Shown here: one piece after another, positions 7,754-46,876 of the stretch
Numbering within the stretch: position 1 is the first letter of the stretch
Layout of the letters: every line of letters starts with the position of its first letter
NCBI RefSeq assembly: GCF_003018255.1
Contig: NZ_CP027440.1
Reading direction: 5' to 3' (one strand)
Length of the DNA stretch: 64,000 bases
From: Escherichia coli
Lineage (GTDB): Bacteria > Pseudomonadota > Gammaproteobacteria > Enterobacterales > Enterobacteriaceae
Position numbers and translations under genes: made by a program
The notes under the pieces: model-generated
The model's database searches: none
Seen by the model: the letters and a program-made list of their open reading frames with translations, nothing else
What the model was told of the DNA's origin: nothing

Positions 7754-7816
7754 AATATCCAGCATCATGAATACTGGATATTTATAGCCTGCAGGCAGCA
7801 TACTGCTGCCTGCAGG
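7754..7816. terminator. two adjacent hairpins downstream of the autotransporter gene / upstream of ykgH
   Basis: AAATATCCAG..CTGGATATTT (7754-7784, 10-bp arms) followed by CCTGCAGGCAGCA-TAC-TGCTGCCTGCAGG (7788-7816, perfect 13-bp stem). Confidence 0.45.
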
Positions 7817-39420: not shown

Positions 39421-41007
39421 TCAGCTTTTCAGCCGCCGCCAGAACGTCGTCCGGCTGATACCTAAATAATTCGCCGCTGCTGTTTTATCGCCATTAAATT
39501 TTTCCAGTGCCTGTTGTGCTGTCAGCAAGCCTGGAATGGGAGTCTTCGCCGACTCGCGTGCCAGTTCCGGCAGTAGCAGCTGCAAAAATTGCGGCGTTAA
39601 ATCCGGCGTCGATTCCACACTTAAAAACAGCGCCAGTCGTTCCATCATATTGCGCAGTTCACGAATATTGCCCGGCCAGTCGTAGTGCACCAGCATGGTT
39701 TCGCTTGCCTGTAACCCCTGGCGTAATGCGGCAGCAAACGGGGCGGAGAGCGCCGCCAGAGACACTTTCAAAAAGCTTTCCGCCAGCGGCAGAATATCCG
39801 CCACCCGCTCGCGCAGTGGTGGCAATTGCAGACGCAAAATACTCAGCCGATAAAACAGATCACGGCGAAACTGCCCTTGCCGCATATCTTCTTCCAGATT
39901 GCAGTGAGTGGCGCTAATGATTCGCACATCCACCGGAACAGGCTGATGCCCGCCGACGCGGGTGACCTCTTTTTCTTCCAGCACCCGCAGCAGCCGAGTC
40001 TGCAACGGCAGCGGCATTTCGCCTATCTCGTCAAGAAACAGCGTGCCACCGTGGGCGATTTCGAACAGCCCGGCGCGACCTCCGCGTCGCGAGCCGGTAA
40101 ACGCCCCTTCCTCATAGCCAAACAGCTCCGCTTCCAGCAGCGATTCGGCAATCGCTCCGCAGTTGACGGCAACAAACGGATGCGACTTTTTGCCCTGTCG
40201 CGCATCGTGGCGGGCAAAATATTCCCGATGAATCGCCTGGGCCGCCAGCTCTTTGCCCGTCCCCGTTTCCCCCTCAATCAACACCGCCGCACTGGAGCGG
40301 GCATACAGCAAAATAGTCTGCCGCACCTGTTCCATCTGTGGTGATTGACCGAGCATATCGCCCAGCACGTAACGAGTACGCAGGGCGTTACGGGTAGCAT
40401 CGTGAGTGTTATGGCGTAACGACATGCGCGTCATATCCAGCGCATCGCTGAACGCCTGGCGCACGGTGGCGGCGGAATAGATAAAAATTCCGGTCATTCC
40501 GGCTTCTTCTGCCAGATCGGTAATCAGCCCCGCGCCGACCACCGCTTCGGTGCCGTTGGCTTTCAGCTCGTTAATCTGCCCGCGCGCGTCTTCTTCGGTA
40601 ATGTAGCTACGTTGATCGAGGCGCAAATTAAAGGTTTTTTGAAACGCCACCAGTGCCGGAATAGTTTCCTGATAAGTGACAACGCCGATAGAAGAGGTGA
40701 GCTTTCCGGCTTTTGCCAGAGCCTGTAACACATCGTAGCCGCTCGGTTTAATCAAAATAACCGGCACTGACAGGCGACTTTTAAGATATGCGCCGTTAGA
40801 GCCAGCAGCGATGATGGCGTCGCAGCGTTCGTTTGCCAGTTTTTTGCGGATGTAGGTCACCGCTTTTTCAAAGCCAAGCTGAATAGGGGTGATATTCGCC
40901 AGGTGATCAAACTCGAGACTGATATCGCGAAACAGCTCGAACAGCCGCGTTACAGATACCGTCCAGATCACCGGTTTGTCGTCATTCAGCCGTGGTGGAT
41001 GTGCCAT
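39421..41007 (-). CDS. prpR: sigma54-dependent transcriptional activator of propionate catabolism
   Basis: ORF 39421..41019; 528 aa from [12 protein letters not shown]; AAA+ sigma54-interaction domain ([20 protein letters not shown]-like) and C-terminal HTH. Confidence 0.9.
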
Positions 41008-41050
41008 AGCGCACCGCAAAGTTAAGAAACCGAATATTGGGTTTAGTCTT

Positions 41051-41109
41051 GTTTCATAATTGTTGCAATGAAACGCGGTGAAACATTGCCTGAAACGTTA
41101 ACTGAAACG
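41051..41109. promoter_or_regulatory. candidate PrpR upstream activating sequences
   Basis: Palindrome GTTTCA-N12-TGAAAC (41051-41074) plus three further TGAAAC(G) repeats up to 41109, upstream of the sigma54 promoter. Confidence 0.45.
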
Positions 41110-41183
41110 CATATTTGCGAATTACTTCATGACTATATTGCTAACAAATTGAAATTAAACATTTAATTTTATTCAGTCAATTG

Positions 41184-41198
41184 TGGCACACCCCTTGC
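41184..41198 (+). promoter_or_regulatory. sigma54 (-24/-12) promoter of prpBCDE
   Basis: TGGCAC-N5-TTGC exactly matching the GG-N10-GC consensus, 48 bp upstream of the prpB start. Confidence 0.8.
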
Positions 41199-41245
41199 TT
41201 TGTGTTTATCAACGCAAATAACAAGTTGATAACAAAGGATGGGCT

Positions 41246-42136
41246 ATGTCTCTACACTCTCCAGGTAAAGCGTTTCGCGCTGCACTGTCTAAAGAAAATC
41301 CATTGCAGATTGTTGGCACCATCAACGCTAACCATGCGCTGCTGGCGCAGCGTGCCGGATATCAGGCAATTTATCTCTCCGGCGGTGGCGTGGCGGCAGG
41401 GTCGCTGGGGCTGCCCGATCTCGGTATTTCTACTCTTGATGACGTGCTGACAGATATTCGCCGTATCACCGACGTTTGTTCGCTGCCGCTGCTGGTGGAT
41501 GCGGATATCGGTTTTGGTTCTTCTGCTTTTAACGTGGCGCGCACCGTGAAATCGATGATTAAAGCCGGTGCGGCAGGATTGCATATTGAAGATCAGGTTG
41601 GTGCGAAACGCTGCGGTCATCGTCCGAATAAAGCGATCGTCTCGAAAGAAGAGATGGTGGATCGGATCCGCGCGGCGGTGGATGCGAAAACCGATCCTGA
41701 TTTTGTGATCATGGCGCGCACCGATGCGCTGGCGGTAGAGGGGCTGGATGCGGCGATTGAGCGTGCGCAGGCCTATGTTGAAGCGGGTGCCGAGATGTTG
41801 TTCCCGGAGGCAATTACCGAACTCGCCATGTACCGCCAGTTTGCCGATGCGGTGCAGGTGCCGATCCTCGCCAACATCACCGAATTTGGCGCAACACCGC
41901 TGTTTACCACCGACGAATTACGCAGCGCCCATGTCGCAATGGCGCTGTACCCACTTTCAGCGTTCCGCGCCATGAACCGCGCCGCTGAGCATGTCTACAA
42001 CGTCCTGCGTCAGGAAGGGACGCAGAAAAGCGTCATCGACACCATGCAGACCCGCAACGAGCTGTACGAAAGCATCAACTACTACCAGTACGAAGAGAAG
42101 CTCGACGACCTGTTTGCCCGTGGTCAGGTGAAATAA
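41246..42136 (+). CDS. prpB: 2-methylisocitrate lyase
   Basis: 296 aa; isocitrate lyase/PEP mutase family motifs (KRCGH). Confidence 0.9.
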
Positions 42137-42165
42137 AAACGCCCGTTGGTTGTATTCGACAACCG

Positions 42166-42255
42166 ATGCCTGATGCGCCGCTGACGCGACTTATCAGGCC
42201 TACGAGGTGAACTGAACTGTAGGTCGGATAAGACGCATAGCGTCGCATCCGACAA
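42166..42255. repeat. REP pair (BIME) between prpB and prpC
   Basis: GCCTGATGCGCCGCTGACGCGACTTATCAGGCCTAC and inverted GTAGGTCGGATAAGACGCATAGCGTCGCATCCGACA. Confidence 0.8.
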
Positions 42256-42295
42256 CAATCTCGACCCTACAAATGATAACAATGACGAGGATAAT

Positions 42296-43465
42296 ATGAG
42301 CGACACAACGATCCTGCAAAACAGTACCCATGTCATTAAACCGAAAAAATCGGTGGCGCTTTCTGGCGTTCCGGCGGGCAATACGGCGCTCTGCACCGTG
42401 GGTAAAAGCGGCAATGATTTGCATTACCGCGGCTACGACATTCTTGATCTGGCGGAACATTGCGAATTTGAAGAAGTGGCGCATCTGCTGATCCACGGCA
42501 AACTGCCGACCCGTGACGAACTCGCCGCCTACAAAACGAAACTGAAAGCCCTGCGCGGTTTACCGGCTAACGTGCGTACCGTGCTGGAAGCCTTACCGGC
42601 GGCGTCACACCCGATGGATGTTATGCGCACCGGCGTTTCCGCGCTCGGCTGCACGCTGCCAGAAAAAGAGGGGCATACCGTCTCTGGCGCGCGGGATATT
42701 GCCGACAAACTGCTGGCGTCACTTAGCTCGATTCTTCTCTACTGGTATCACTACAGCCACAACGGCGAACGCATTCAGCCGGAAACCGATGACGACTCCA
42801 TCGGCGGTCACTTCCTGCATCTGCTGCACGGCGAAAAGCCGTCGCAAAGCTGGGAAAAGGCGATGCATATTTCGCTGGTGCTGTACGCCGAACACGAGTT
42901 TAACGCCTCCACCTTTACCAGCCGGGTGATTGCGGGCACCGGCTCTGATATGTATTCCGCGATTATTGGCGCGATTGGTGCACTGCGCGGGCCGAAGCAC
43001 GGCGGGGCGAATGAAGTGTCGCTGGAGATCCAGCAACGCTACGAAACGCCGGACGAAGCCGAAGCCGATATCCGCAAGCGGGTGGAAAACAAAGAAGTGG
43101 TCATTGGTTTTGGTCATCCGGTTTATACCATCGCCGACCCGCGTCATCAGGTGATCAAACGTGTGGCGAAGCAGCTCTCGCAGGAAGGCGGCTCGCTGAA
43201 GATGTACAACATCGCCGATCGCCTGGAAACGGTGATGTGGGAGAGCAAAAAGATGTTCCCCAATCTCGACTGGTTCTCCGCTGTTTCCTACAACATGATG
43301 GGCGTTCCCACCGAGATGTTCACCCCACTGTTTGTTATCGCCCGCGTCACCGGCTGGGCGGCGCACATTATCGAACAACGTCAGGACAACAAAATTATCC
43401 GTCCTTCCGCCAATTATGTTGGACCGGAAGACCGCCAGTTTGTCGCGCTGGATAAGCGCCAGTAA
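42296..43465 (+). CDS. prpC: 2-methylcitrate synthase
   Basis: 389 aa; citrate synthase family. Confidence 0.9.
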
Positions 43466-43498
43466 ACCTCTACGAATAACAATAAGGAAACGTACCCA

Positions 43499-44950
43499 AT
43501 GTCAGCTCAAATCAACAACATCCGCCCGGAATTTGATCGTGAAATCGTTGATATCGTCGATTACGTGATGAACTACGAAATCAGCTCCAAAGTAGCCTAC
43601 GACACCGCACATTACTGCCTGCTCGACACGCTCGGCTGCGGTCTTGAAGCTCTCGAATACCCAGCCTGTAAAAAACTGCTGGGGCCAATTGTCCCCGGCA
43701 CCGTCGTACCTAACGGCGTGCGCGTCCCCGGAACTCAGTTCCAGCTCGACCCCGTCCAGGCGGCATTTAACATCGGCGCGATGATCCGTTGGCTCGATTT
43801 CAACGATACCTGGCTGGCGGCGGAGTGGGGGCATCCTTCCGACAACCTCGGCGGCATTCTGGCAACGGCAGACTGGCTTTCGCGCAACGCGGTCGCCAGC
43901 GGCAAAGCGCCGTTGACCATGAAACAGGTGCTGACCGCAATGATCAAAGCCCATGAAATTCAGGGCTGCATCGCGCTGGAAAACTCCTTTAACCGCGTCG
44001 GCCTCGACCACGTTCTGTTAGTGAAAGTGGCTTCCACCGCCGTGGTCGCCGAAATGCTCGGCCTGACCCGCGAGGAAATTCTCAACGCCGTTTCGCTGGC
44101 ATGGGTAGACGGACAGTCGCTGCGCACCTATCGTCATGCACCGAACACCGGCACGCGTAAATCCTGGGCGGCGGGCGATGCCACTTCCCGCGCGGTACGT
44201 CTGGCACTGATGGCGAAAACGGGCGAAATGGGTTACCCGTCAGCCCTGACTGCGCCTGTGTGGGGCTTCTACGACGTCTCCTTCAAAGGTGAATCGTTCC
44301 GCTTCCAGCGCCCGTACGGTTCTTACGTCATGGAAAATGTGCTGTTCAAAATCTCCTTCCCGGCGGAGTTCCACTCCCAGACGGCAGTTGAAGCAGCGAT
44401 GACGCTCTATGAACAGATGCAGGCAGCAGGCAAAACGGCGGCAGATATCGAAAAAGTGACCATTCGCACCCACGAAGCCTGTATTCGCATCATCGACAAA
44501 AAAGGACCGCTCAATAACCCGGCAGACCGCGATCACTGCATTCAGTACATGGTGGCGATCCCGCTGCTATTCGGGCGCTTAACGGCGGCAGATTACGAGG
44601 ACAACGTTGCGCAAGATAAACGCATTGACGCCCTGCGCGAGAAGATCAATTGCTTTGAAGATCCGGCATTTACTGCTGACTACCACGACCCGGAAAAACG
44701 CGCCATCGCCAATGCCATTACCCTTGAGTTCACCGACGGCACACGATTTGAAGAAGTGGTGGTGGAGTACCCAATTGGTCATGCTCGCCGCCGTCAGGAT
44801 GGTATTCCGAAACTGGTCGATAAATTCAAAATCAATCTCGCGCGCCAGTTCCCGACTCGCCAACAGCAGCGCATTCTGGAGGTTTCTCTCGACAGAACTC
44901 GCCTGGAACAGATGCCGGTCAATGAGTATCTCGACCTGTACGTCATTTAA
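43499..44950 (+). CDS. prpD: 2-methylcitrate dehydratase
   Basis: 483 aa; MmgE/PrpD family. Confidence 0.9.
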
Positions 44951-44989
44951 GTAAACGGCGGTAAGGCGTAAGTTCAACAGGAGAGCATT

Positions 44990-46876
44990 ATGTCTTTTAG
45001 CGAATTTTATCAGCGTTCGATTAACGAACCGGAGAAGTTCTGGGCCGAGCAGGCCCGGCGTATTGACTGGCAGACGCCCTTTACGCAAACGCTTGATCAC
45101 AGCAATCCGCCGTTTGCCCGTTGGTTTTGTGAAGGCCGAACCAACTTGTGTCACAACGCTATCGACCGCTGGCTGGAGAAACAGCCAGAGGCGCTGGCGC
45201 TGATTGCCGTCTCTTCGGAAACAGAAGAAGAGCGCACCTTTACCTTTCGTCAGCTGCATGACGAAGTGAACGCGGTGGCCTCAATGTTGCGTTCATTGGG
45301 TGTGCAGCGTGGCGATCGGGTGCTGGTGTATATGCCGATGATTGCCGAAGCACATATTACCCTGCTGGCTTGCGCGCGCATTGGCGCTATTCACTCGGTG
45401 GTGTTTGGGGGATTTGCCTCGCACAGCGTGGCGGCGCGAATTGATGATGCTAAACCGGTGCTGATTGTCTCGGCTGATGCCGGAGCGCGCGGTGGCAAAA
45501 TCATTCCCTATAAAAAATTGCTCGACGATGCGATAAGTCAGGCGCAGCATCAGCCGCGCCACGTTTTACTGGTGGATCGCGGACTGGCGAAAATGGCGCG
45601 CGTCAGCGGGCGGGATGTCGATTTCGCGTCGTTGCGCCATCAACACATCGGCGCGCGGGTGCCGGTGGCATGGCTGGAATCCAACGAAACCTCCTGCATT
45701 CTCTACACCTCCGGCACGACCGGCAAACCTAAAGGTGTGCAGCGTGATGTCGGCGGATATGCGGTGGCGCTGGCGACCTCGATGGACACCATTTTTGGCG
45801 GCAAAGCGGGCGGCGTGTTCTTTTGTGCTTCGGATATCGGCTGGGTGGTAGGGCATTCGTATATCGTTTACGCGCCGCTGCTGGCGGGGATGGCGACTAT
45901 CGTTTACGAAGGATTGCCGACCTGGCCGGACTGCGGCGTGTGGTGGAAAATTGTCGAGAAATATCAGGTTAGCCGCATGTTCTCAGCGCCGACCGCCATT
46001 CGCGTGCTGAAAAAATTCCCTACCGCTGAAATTCGCAAACACGATCTTTCGTCGCTGGAAGTGCTCTATCTGGCTGGAGAACCGCTGGACGAGCCGACCG
46101 CCAGTTGGGTGAGCAATACGCTGGATGTGCCGGTCATCGACAACTACTGGCAGACCGAATCCGGCTGGCCGATTATGGCGATTGCTCGCGGTCTGGATGA
46201 CAGACCGACGCGTCTGGGAAGCCCCGGCGTGCCGATGTATGGCTATAACGTGCAGTTGCTCAATGAAGTCACCGGCGAACCGTGTGGCGTCAATGAGAAA
46301 GGGATGCTGGTAGTGGAGGGGCCATTGCCGCCAGGCTGTATTCAAACCATCTGGGGCGACGACGACCGCTTTGTGAAGACGTACTGGTCGCTGTTTTCCC
46401 GTCCGGTGTACGCCACTTTTGACTGGGGCATCCGCGATGCTGACGGTTATCACTTTATTCTCGGGCGCACTGACGATGTGATTAACGTTGCCGGACATCG
46501 GCTGGGTACGCGTGAGATTGAAGAGAGTATCTCCAGTCATCCGGGCGTTGCCGAAGTGGCGGTGGTTGGGGTGAAAGATGCGCTGAAAGGGCAGGTGGCG
46601 GTGGCGTTTGTCATTCCGAAAGAGAGCGACAGTCTGGAAGACCGTGAGGTGGCGCACTTGCAAGAGAAGGCAATTATGGCGCTGGTAGACAGCCAGATTG
46701 GCAACTTTGGCCGCCCGGCGCACGTCTGGTTTGTCTCGCAATTGCCAAAAACGCGATCCGGAAAAATGCTGCGCCGCACGATCCAGGCGATTTGCGAAGG
46801 ACGCGATCCTGGAGATCTGACGACCATTGATGATCCGGCGTCGTTGGATCAGATCCGCCAGGCGATGGAAGAGTAG
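44990..46876 (+). CDS. prpE: propionyl-CoA synthetase
   Basis: 628 aa; acyl-CoA synthetase AMP-binding motif (YTSGTTGKPKG). Confidence 0.9.
   Translation: MSFSEFYQRSINEPEKFWAEQARRIDWQTPFTQTLDHSNPPFARWFCEGRTNLCHNAIDRWLEKQPEALALIAVSSETEEERTFTFRQLHDEVNAVASMLRSLGVQRGDRVLVYMPMIAEAHITLLACARIGAIHSVVFGGFASHSVAARIDDAKPVLIVSADAGARGGKIIPYKKLLDDAISQAQHQPRHVLLVDRGLAKMARVSGRDVDFASLRHQHIGARVPVAWLESNETSCILYTSGTTGKPKGVQRDVGGYAVALATSMDTIFGGKAGGVFFCASDIGWVVGHSYIVYAPLLAGMATIVYEGLPTWPDCGVWWKIVEKYQVSRMFSAPTAIRVLKKFPTAEIRKHDLSSLEVLYLAGEPLDEPTASWVSNTLDVPVIDNYWQTESGWPIMAIARGLDDRPTRLGSPGVPMYGYNVQLLNEVTGEPCGVNEKGMLVVEGPLPPGCIQTIWGDDDRFVKTYWSLFSRPVYATFDWGIRDADGYHFILGRTDDVINVAGHRLGTREIEESISSHPGVAEVAVVGVKDALKGQVAVAFVIPKESDSLEDREVAHLQEKAIMALVDSQIGNFGRPAHVWFVSQLPKTRSGKMLRRTIQAICEGRDPGDLTTIDDPASLDQIRQAMEE

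Follow-up and report, generated by a model that had tools for sequence, protein, structure and literature searches.

The 2-methylcitrate cycle operon prpBCDE and the divergent gene prpR have been described in Salmonella and in Escherichia coli K-12. For sequences identical or orthologous to those analyzed here, the literature has shown occupancy by sigma-54, a requirement for prpR, rpoN (ntrA) and ihf, co-activation by 2-methylcitrate and, in Salmonella, a consensus of the PrpR footprint. The footprint obtained by Palacios and Escalante-Semerena in 2004 reportedly comprised two sites of dyad symmetry, the promoter-proximal one having the higher affinity. Passages of PMC5566544 and PMC10101121 summarize that PrpR, sigma-54, IHF, 2-methylcitrate and CRP are required. 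A more general relative is the NtrC-glnAp2 type, whose activator combines AAA+ and Fis-type HTH domains and acts from multiple sites ~100-160 bp upstream by DNA looping, IHF-assisted at many sigma-54 promoters. The prp system is alike in these respects but differs in the half-site (TGAAAC for PrpR and TGCACC-N5-GGTGCA for NtrC), in the sensor (the PrpR_N ligand domain for 2-methylcitrate and a phosphorylated receiver domain in NtrC) and in the L1 loop, which is GAFTGS in PrpR.

We analyzed a window of E. coli DNA, that is, one whole stretch of 64,000 nucleotides (64 kb), and compared its prp region with these systems. The coordinates of the features are summarized in Table 1. The region is the already known prpBp/PrpR system, and its regulatory bases are identical to those of K-12. 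It shares with K-12 prpBp (EcoCyc predicted; OS01 of Bonocora et al. 2015) the 17-mer GTGGCACACCCCTTGCT, the UAS and the spacer length of 238 bp between prpR and prpB, and all nine substitutions that separate the two spacers lie outside the hexamers and the -24/-12 element. The likeness to Salmonella prp covers the divergent prpR/prpBCDE arrangement and a -24/-12 element that precedes the prpB ATG by 47-49 bp. Both also contain a conserved GTTTCA-N12-TGAAAC inverted repeat that encloses a GTTGCA, and both have six positions on the same lattice (counted in bp from the first half-site), with TGAAACG at position 40. Escherichia differs from Salmonella in being without the abutting palindrome CGTTTCATGAAACG, since it has a direct TGAAAC at 28 as the fourth half-site, in place of an inverted GTTTCA at 34. 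The sixth half-site is TGAAACG in Escherichia and TGACAC in Salmonella, the UAS and the -24 element are 81 bp apart against 118 bp, and the -24 sequence is TGGCAC against TGGCAT.

Table 1 Features of the prpR-prpBCDE region in the window (lattice positions in bp from half-site 1).
Feature	Position	Strand	Remarks
prpR, sigma-54-dependent activator (bEBP), 528 aa	39421..41007	-	NCBIfam PRK15424, E=3.9e-303, 1006 bits vs 703-bit cut-off
UAS half-site 1, GTTTCA	41051..41056	-	Lattice 0; ~-159 to predicted TSS; invariant in 10 Enterobacteriaceae (alignment) and 8 Escherichia variants
UAS half-site 2, degenerate GTTGCA	41062..41067	-	Lattice 11; 11 bp after half-site 1; counterpart in Shimwellia and Pseudocitrobacter is a perfect GTTTCA
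UAS half-site 3, TGAAACG	41069..41075	+	Lattice 18; right arm of the conserved inverted repeat GTTTCAT-N10-ATGAAAC
UAS half-site 4, TGAAACA	41079..41085	+	Lattice 28
UAS half-site 5, TGAAACG	41091..41097	+	Lattice 40; best conserved half-site (invariant columns T84-G90); corresponds to right half of Salmonella 14-bp palindrome
UAS half-site 6, TGAAACG	41103..41109	+	Lattice 52; counterpart is TGACAC in Salmonella, Citrobacter, Kluyvera and Pluralibacter
AT-rich stretch, candidate IHF bend site	41142..41168	.	Three overlapping one-mismatch matches to IHF core WATCAANNNNTTR; ~-68 to -42
Sigma-54 -24/-12 element, TGGCAC-ACCCC-TTGC	41184..41198	+	Direct read; GG at -25/-24, GC at -13/-12
Predicted prpB 5' UTR, 36 nt	41210..41245	+	From -24/-12 geometry; Shine-Dalgarno AAGGA at 41235-41239
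prpBCDE operon, 2-methylcitrate cycle enzymes	41246..46876	+	Equivalog matches for all four genes
prpB	41246-42136	+	Equivalog match
prpC	42296-43465	+	Equivalog match
prpD	43499-44950	+	Equivalog match
prpE	44990-46876	+	Equivalog match

The start codon of prpR was taken from the RefSeq annotation of its orthologues. Pfam domains of the PrpR protein were the PrpR_N sensor (PF06506), the AAA+ domain Sigma54_activat (PF00158, E=1.2e-65) with an AAA lid, and a C-terminal Fis-type HTH_8 (PF02954). Exact GAFTGA and classical Walker A patterns gave no match in PrpR, which carries instead the variants GAFTGS in the L1 loop, one residue away from the canonical GAFTGA, and GETGTGKE as Walker A, together with the Walker B motif LFLDE. 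Judged by these domains and motifs, PrpR, encoded next door to prpBCDE, is the cognate AAA+ activator and has the domain for interaction with sigma-54.

Several other sequences were observed around these genes. A near-perfect 18-bp palindrome, AAACCGAATATTGGGTTT, occupies 41027-41044 in the gap that separates the UAS from the start codon of prpR; it is partly conserved in Citrobacter and Kluyvera and may belong to the promoter or the leader of prpR. The prpB-prpC spacer (42137-42295) contains REP/BIME-like palindromic units with sub-threshold Rfam naRNA4 matches, and its length differs by strain, being 44 bp in 2014C-3338, 159 bp here and 439 bp in K-12. About 17 kb downstream, the segment 58487-58581 contains sequences that resemble the lac operator (TGTGAAATTGTTATCC) and the lac CRP site (AGTGAGCTGACTCACA); thus, the window represents the prp-to-lac stretch of the Escherichia chromosome, as on the E. 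coli map.

The -24/-12 element was read directly as TGGCAC (41184-41189), the N5 ACCCC (41190-41194) and TTGC (41195-41198), followed by T. In TGGCACACCCCTTGCT (41184-41199), the GG and GC are exactly 10 bp apart, as in TGGCAC-N5-TTGCW. The element is correctly oriented toward prpB, with 47 bp from the -12 GC to the ATG. TGGCAC-N5-TTGC occurs once in the window, and 25 of 100 shuffled windows had at least one match, so that the pattern by itself is not significant; its significance derives from its position, orientation and conservation and from published sigma-54 binding data. The 17-mer at 41183-41199 agrees letter for letter with the motif under OS01, a sigma-54 ChIP-seq peak that precedes prpB in E. 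coli K-12; Table 1 of that study gives the site with "Distance 36" to prpB and marks it as an EcoCyc predicted promoter (PMC4591121). Reconstituted RpoN holoenzyme gave a gSELEX peak inside the prpR/prpB spacer (PMC8743547). The Salmonella orthologue, TGGCATAGCCTTTGCTTT, is a sigma-54 site confirmed by ChIP-chip, and Salmonella prpBCDE expression is 45-fold rpoN-dependent (PMC3844500). In a species-level genome collection, TGGYAY-N5-YTGC was found no more than 150 bp upstream of prpB in 76 of 80 prpB loci, and the TGG, A and TTGC were invariant within these elements. The initial annotation, which had called this element a -24/-12 promoter in a divergent prpR-prpB setting, was right about its exact position, and its reading as a sigma-54 promoter is supported by the identity with the K-12 motif and by the recurrence of the element among prpB loci; the profile matches to prpR and to all four operon genes bore out the setting as well.

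The transcriptional start site is predicted at ~41210, because the GC is placed at -13/-12 and the resulting 36-nt leader agrees with the published distance of 36 (PMC4591121). RNA folding of this predicted 5' UTR was no better than that of shuffles (z = 0.58), and an Rfam scan of 40800-42400 gave nothing in the prpR/prpB spacer. A simple consensus scan of 40900-41350 detected no sigma-70 -35/-10-like sites, so the prpR sigma-70 promoter was not located by the consensus scan of the spacer; a scan of the spacer for terminators found none.

We read the hexamers directly from the sequence of 40800-41400. GTTTCA (41051-41056), the 12-nt spacer taattgttgcaa (41057-41068) and TGAAAC (41069-41074) are followed by further TGAAAC copies at 41079-41084, 41091-41096 and 41103-41108. 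The base 3' of TGAAAC is G in the copies at 41069, 41091 and 41103, and A in the copy at 41079. The array extends from ~-159 to -101, its last hexamer is 81 bp from the -24 element, and both the array and the promoter element are inside the 238-bp spacer. With both strands counted, the total of TGAAAC/GTTTCA in the 64 kb is ordinary (42 against 38.8 expected); the local cluster amounts to five copies in 58 bp. In 500 dinucleotide-preserving shuffles, the largest cluster per 60 bp was three copies, reached in four shuffles, and was one or two in the rest, so that none of the 500 had at least four. When all 2080 hexamer/reverse-complement classes were screened, GTTTCA/TGAAAC was the only one to reach five copies per 60 bp anywhere in the window. 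The screen for hexamer clusters also returned two compact palindromes, gcacgCTGTACAGGCTGTACAGcgtgc at ~10977-11003 and CCTGCAGGCAGCAtacTGCTGCCTGCAGG at 7788-7816, which are unrelated to the prp array.

We compared the hexamers with the consensus of PrpR. Table 1 of a review of the Salmonella RpoN regulon gives CGTTTCATGAAACG as the PrpR enhancer consensus, with Palacios and Escalante-Semerena 2004 as its source (PMC4987338). TGAAACG/CGTTTCA is exactly one half of this palindrome. The array holds three exact TGAAACG, one TGAAACA and one inverted TGTTTCA; of the 14-bp palindrome only the right half is present in the window (41091-41097), and the E. coli array consists mostly of direct repeats. 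The full 14-bp palindrome was found in S. arizonae, Citrobacter and Pluralibacter. As for the PrpR enhancer sites proposed in the initial annotation, the coordinates of GTTTCA-N12-TGAAAC and of three more TGAAAC copies proved exact on direct reading, and these five hexamers are all present, but a sixth, degenerate copy (GTTGCA, 41062-41067) had been overlooked. Their assignment to PrpR stood in so far as the half-site matches one half of the Salmonella-derived consensus for mapped PrpR sites and the cluster is conserved in orthologous spacers; the full palindrome is not part of the E. coli array. From its sequence, the array is one of six half-sites, starting at 41051, 41062, 41069, 41079, 41091 and 41103, and E. 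coli PrpR probably contacts each of them. In the literature, reached via secondary sources, we found no direct E. coli PrpR binding data on this exact array, the footprint being reported for Salmonella only; PMC12096077 contained no PrpR or UAS data.

The region is conserved within Escherichia. Segment 40900-41350 matched 5219 of 5426 complete E. coli genomes, with prpR/prpB annotation everywhere, and its identity to annotated E. coli prpR-prpB regions was 97-99.8%. Of 5220 E. coli records, 4523 carried the 68-bp UAS with 100% identity. In divergent Escherichia variants, changes were located between the hexamers (attgcc to agtgtc, attgac or attatc) and in the AT-rich middle of the spacer. None of these variants altered TGGCAC/TTGC, and the sole hexamer change was TGAAAT at half-site 4 in E. 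albertii. Two strains had unusual loci. In E. coli SCPM-O-B-9504 (NZ_CP144930.1), an IS1A is inserted at the prpB -12 (~385-430 of locus L087) and replaces the -24, the UAS and the prpR side; therefore, PrpR-driven induction of prpBCDE should fail in that strain. In the blood isolate E. coli UID2309220015, prpR is annotated as frameshifted (pseudogene), one C of the -24/-12 spacer is replaced by A (ACCCA) and several changes fall in the AT-rich middle region.

We extended the comparison to 66 orthologous loci with a divergent prpR, from Escherichia to Oxalobacteraceae, which included Citrobacter, Salmonella, Kluyvera, Pluralibacter, Shimwellia, Pseudocitrobacter, Photorhabdus, Xenorhabdus, Providencia, Morganella and several Oxalobacteraceae. 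Hexamer density in these loci was 14.3 per kb in the prpR-prpB spacer and 0.71 per kb in the rest, a 20-fold enrichment, and the cluster was always on the side of the spacer nearer to prpR. The -24 followed the last upstream hexamer by 81-167 bp in all loci except one (L038), which has an isolated hexamer 24 bp before the -24. In a Pseudomonas locus with a GntR-type regulator before prpB, neither hexamers nor a -24/-12 element were present; in Janthinobacterium loci with no prpR within 3 kb, the hexamer cluster and the -24/-12 element occurred together. In Xenorhabdus koppenhoeferi, a PrpR-like coding sequence reaches nearly to the prpB -24/-12 and there is no hexamer cluster, which suggests, from this gene layout, that the enhancer has been deleted.

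The oriented sites gave the extended motif aTGAAACr. Spacings between neighbors of the same orientation peaked at 11 and 21-22 bp, and those from GTTTCA to TGAAAC were 6-7, 17-18 and 28-29 bp; together, these spacings describe a single lattice of ~11 bp on one helical face. The positions 0R, 11R, 18F, 28F or 34R, 40F and 52F are recognizable in nine Enterobacteriaceae, apart from 18 and 52 in Shimwellia and 18 in Pseudocitrobacter. The fourth half-site is direct at 28 in Escherichia, Kluyvera, Shimwellia and Pseudocitrobacter. It is an inverted GTTTCA at 34 (33 in Pluralibacter) in Salmonella, Citrobacter and Pluralibacter, where it generates CGTTTCATGAAACG. Positions 28 and 34 are equivalent on the lattice, since 34 + 6 - 11 = 29.

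The DNA that separates the UAS from the promoter contains no perfect match to the IHF core WATCAANNNNTTR; the matches found there were consensus-level ones with one mismatch. The AT-rich stretch at 41142-41168 is conserved within Escherichia. The need for ihf in Salmonella prp expression is cited from Palacios 2000 in a passage of PMC5566544. IHF may act at 41142-41168, where a bend would be expected and where these one-mismatch matches lie in AT-rich DNA. The CRP-consensus match nearest to the array, at 41116-41131, was rejected as unconvincing, having three mismatches and being worse still in K-12. Downstream of the -12 element and across the predicted start site is a perfect 8-bp inverted repeat, TTATCAAC-N11-GTTGATAA (41206-41232). 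Within this repeat, TATCAACTTGTTA (minus strand, 41219-41231) matches the IHF core perfectly, as no other sequence in the spacer does; the whole 64 kb has six perfect matches. The block TAACAAGTTGATAACAA from the same region is conserved in Escherichia, Citrobacter and Kluyvera and has one change in Pluralibacter, and is not conserved in Salmonella; it is a 78% direct repeat of 41142-41159 in the candidate upstream IHF site.

We consider it nearly certain that 41051-41198 is the cis-regulatory core of Escherichia prpBCDE, comprising a sigma-54 promoter and a PrpR enhancer array. In the proposed mechanism, sigma-54 RNA polymerase would occupy 41184-41198 as a closed complex that is unable to open unaided. 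The divergently encoded PrpR would bind the six TGAAAC-type half-sites (41051-41109) through its C-terminal Fis-type HTH, the half-sites being presented on the same face of the helix by their ~11-bp periodicity. 2-Methylcitrate, formed from propionate via PrpE and PrpC, would activate PrpR, whose AAA+ domains would then form the active oligomer. Bending of the AT-rich DNA, probably by IHF at ~41142-41168, would bring PrpR to the closed complex, and ATP hydrolysis coupled via the GAFTGS loop would open the promoter, with transcription starting near 41210.

The array could instead be chiefly the operator of a different protein, for instance CRP or a further global regulator, or could serve the autoregulation of the prpR sigma-70 promoter, and not be an enhancer of prpB. 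Both prp promoters are reported to be CRP-dependent, with a CRP site said to overlap the PrpR operator (PMC9452892, a secondary source; PMC3105977), and K-12 PrpR is named a "dual regulator" in RefSeq. The array is moreover 44-102 bp from the prpR start codon and therefore overlaps the prpR promoter region. TGAAAC differs, however, from the CRP half-site, and a scan for TGTGA-N6-TCACA with up to three mismatches gave nothing inside the array, whereas the hexamer is the half-site of the PrpR footprint consensus. Across phyla, it co-occurs with the -24/-12 element even without an adjacent prpR, and it is absent at the GntR-type prpB locus. We thus judge a role mainly for another factor or for autoregulation to be very improbable, and such a role is unlikely to replace the PrpR enhancer as the explanation; the array may have a dual role as enhancer and autoregulatory operator, which would add to this explanation and not replace it.

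Another explanation is that the repeats arose by accident from the composition of AT-rich intergenic DNA and that TGGCAC-N5-TTGC is a chance match. A match to the promoter pattern is indeed expected in ~25% of shuffled 64-kb windows, and the hexamer total of the window is ordinary. The size of the cluster, on the other hand, was unmatched in the 500 shuffles, the hexamer is enriched in the 66 orthologous spacers, and in Escherichia variants the hexamers and the -24/-12 element have stayed invariant amid drifting neighbor bases. Chance is excluded by these three results, and in vivo sigma-54 occupancy has been published for the identical 17-mer (PMC4591121), which leaves an accidental origin a negligible likelihood.

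What the PrpR enhancer and sigma-54 promoter described here add to the known system is mildly new: the six-position lattice, the Escherichia-specific flipped fourth half-site, the perfected sixth site and the shorter loop. That the enterobacterial PrpR enhancer is a fixed ~11-bp lattice of six half-sites, one per HTH of a PrpR hexamer, in which half-sites are able to flip in phase, and not "two dyads", is a tentative reading that we rate as rather doubtful. If this reading were true, Escherichia would represent a flip (TGAAAC at 28 against GTTTCA at 34 in Salmonella), a perfected sixth site and a loop shorter by 37 bp. The output of the E. coli pPro system is threefold weaker than that of the Salmonella prpR-PprpB system (PMC5566544), and, speculatively, the rewiring of the Escherichia array might explain this difference. 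The widely used propionate-inducible pPro vectors and propionate biosensors are built on the prpB promoter, a textbook example of the sigma-54 type. A comparative map of the lattice, the flipped half-site and the shorter enhancer-promoter distance could help the rational tuning of such biosensors, as a modest refinement.
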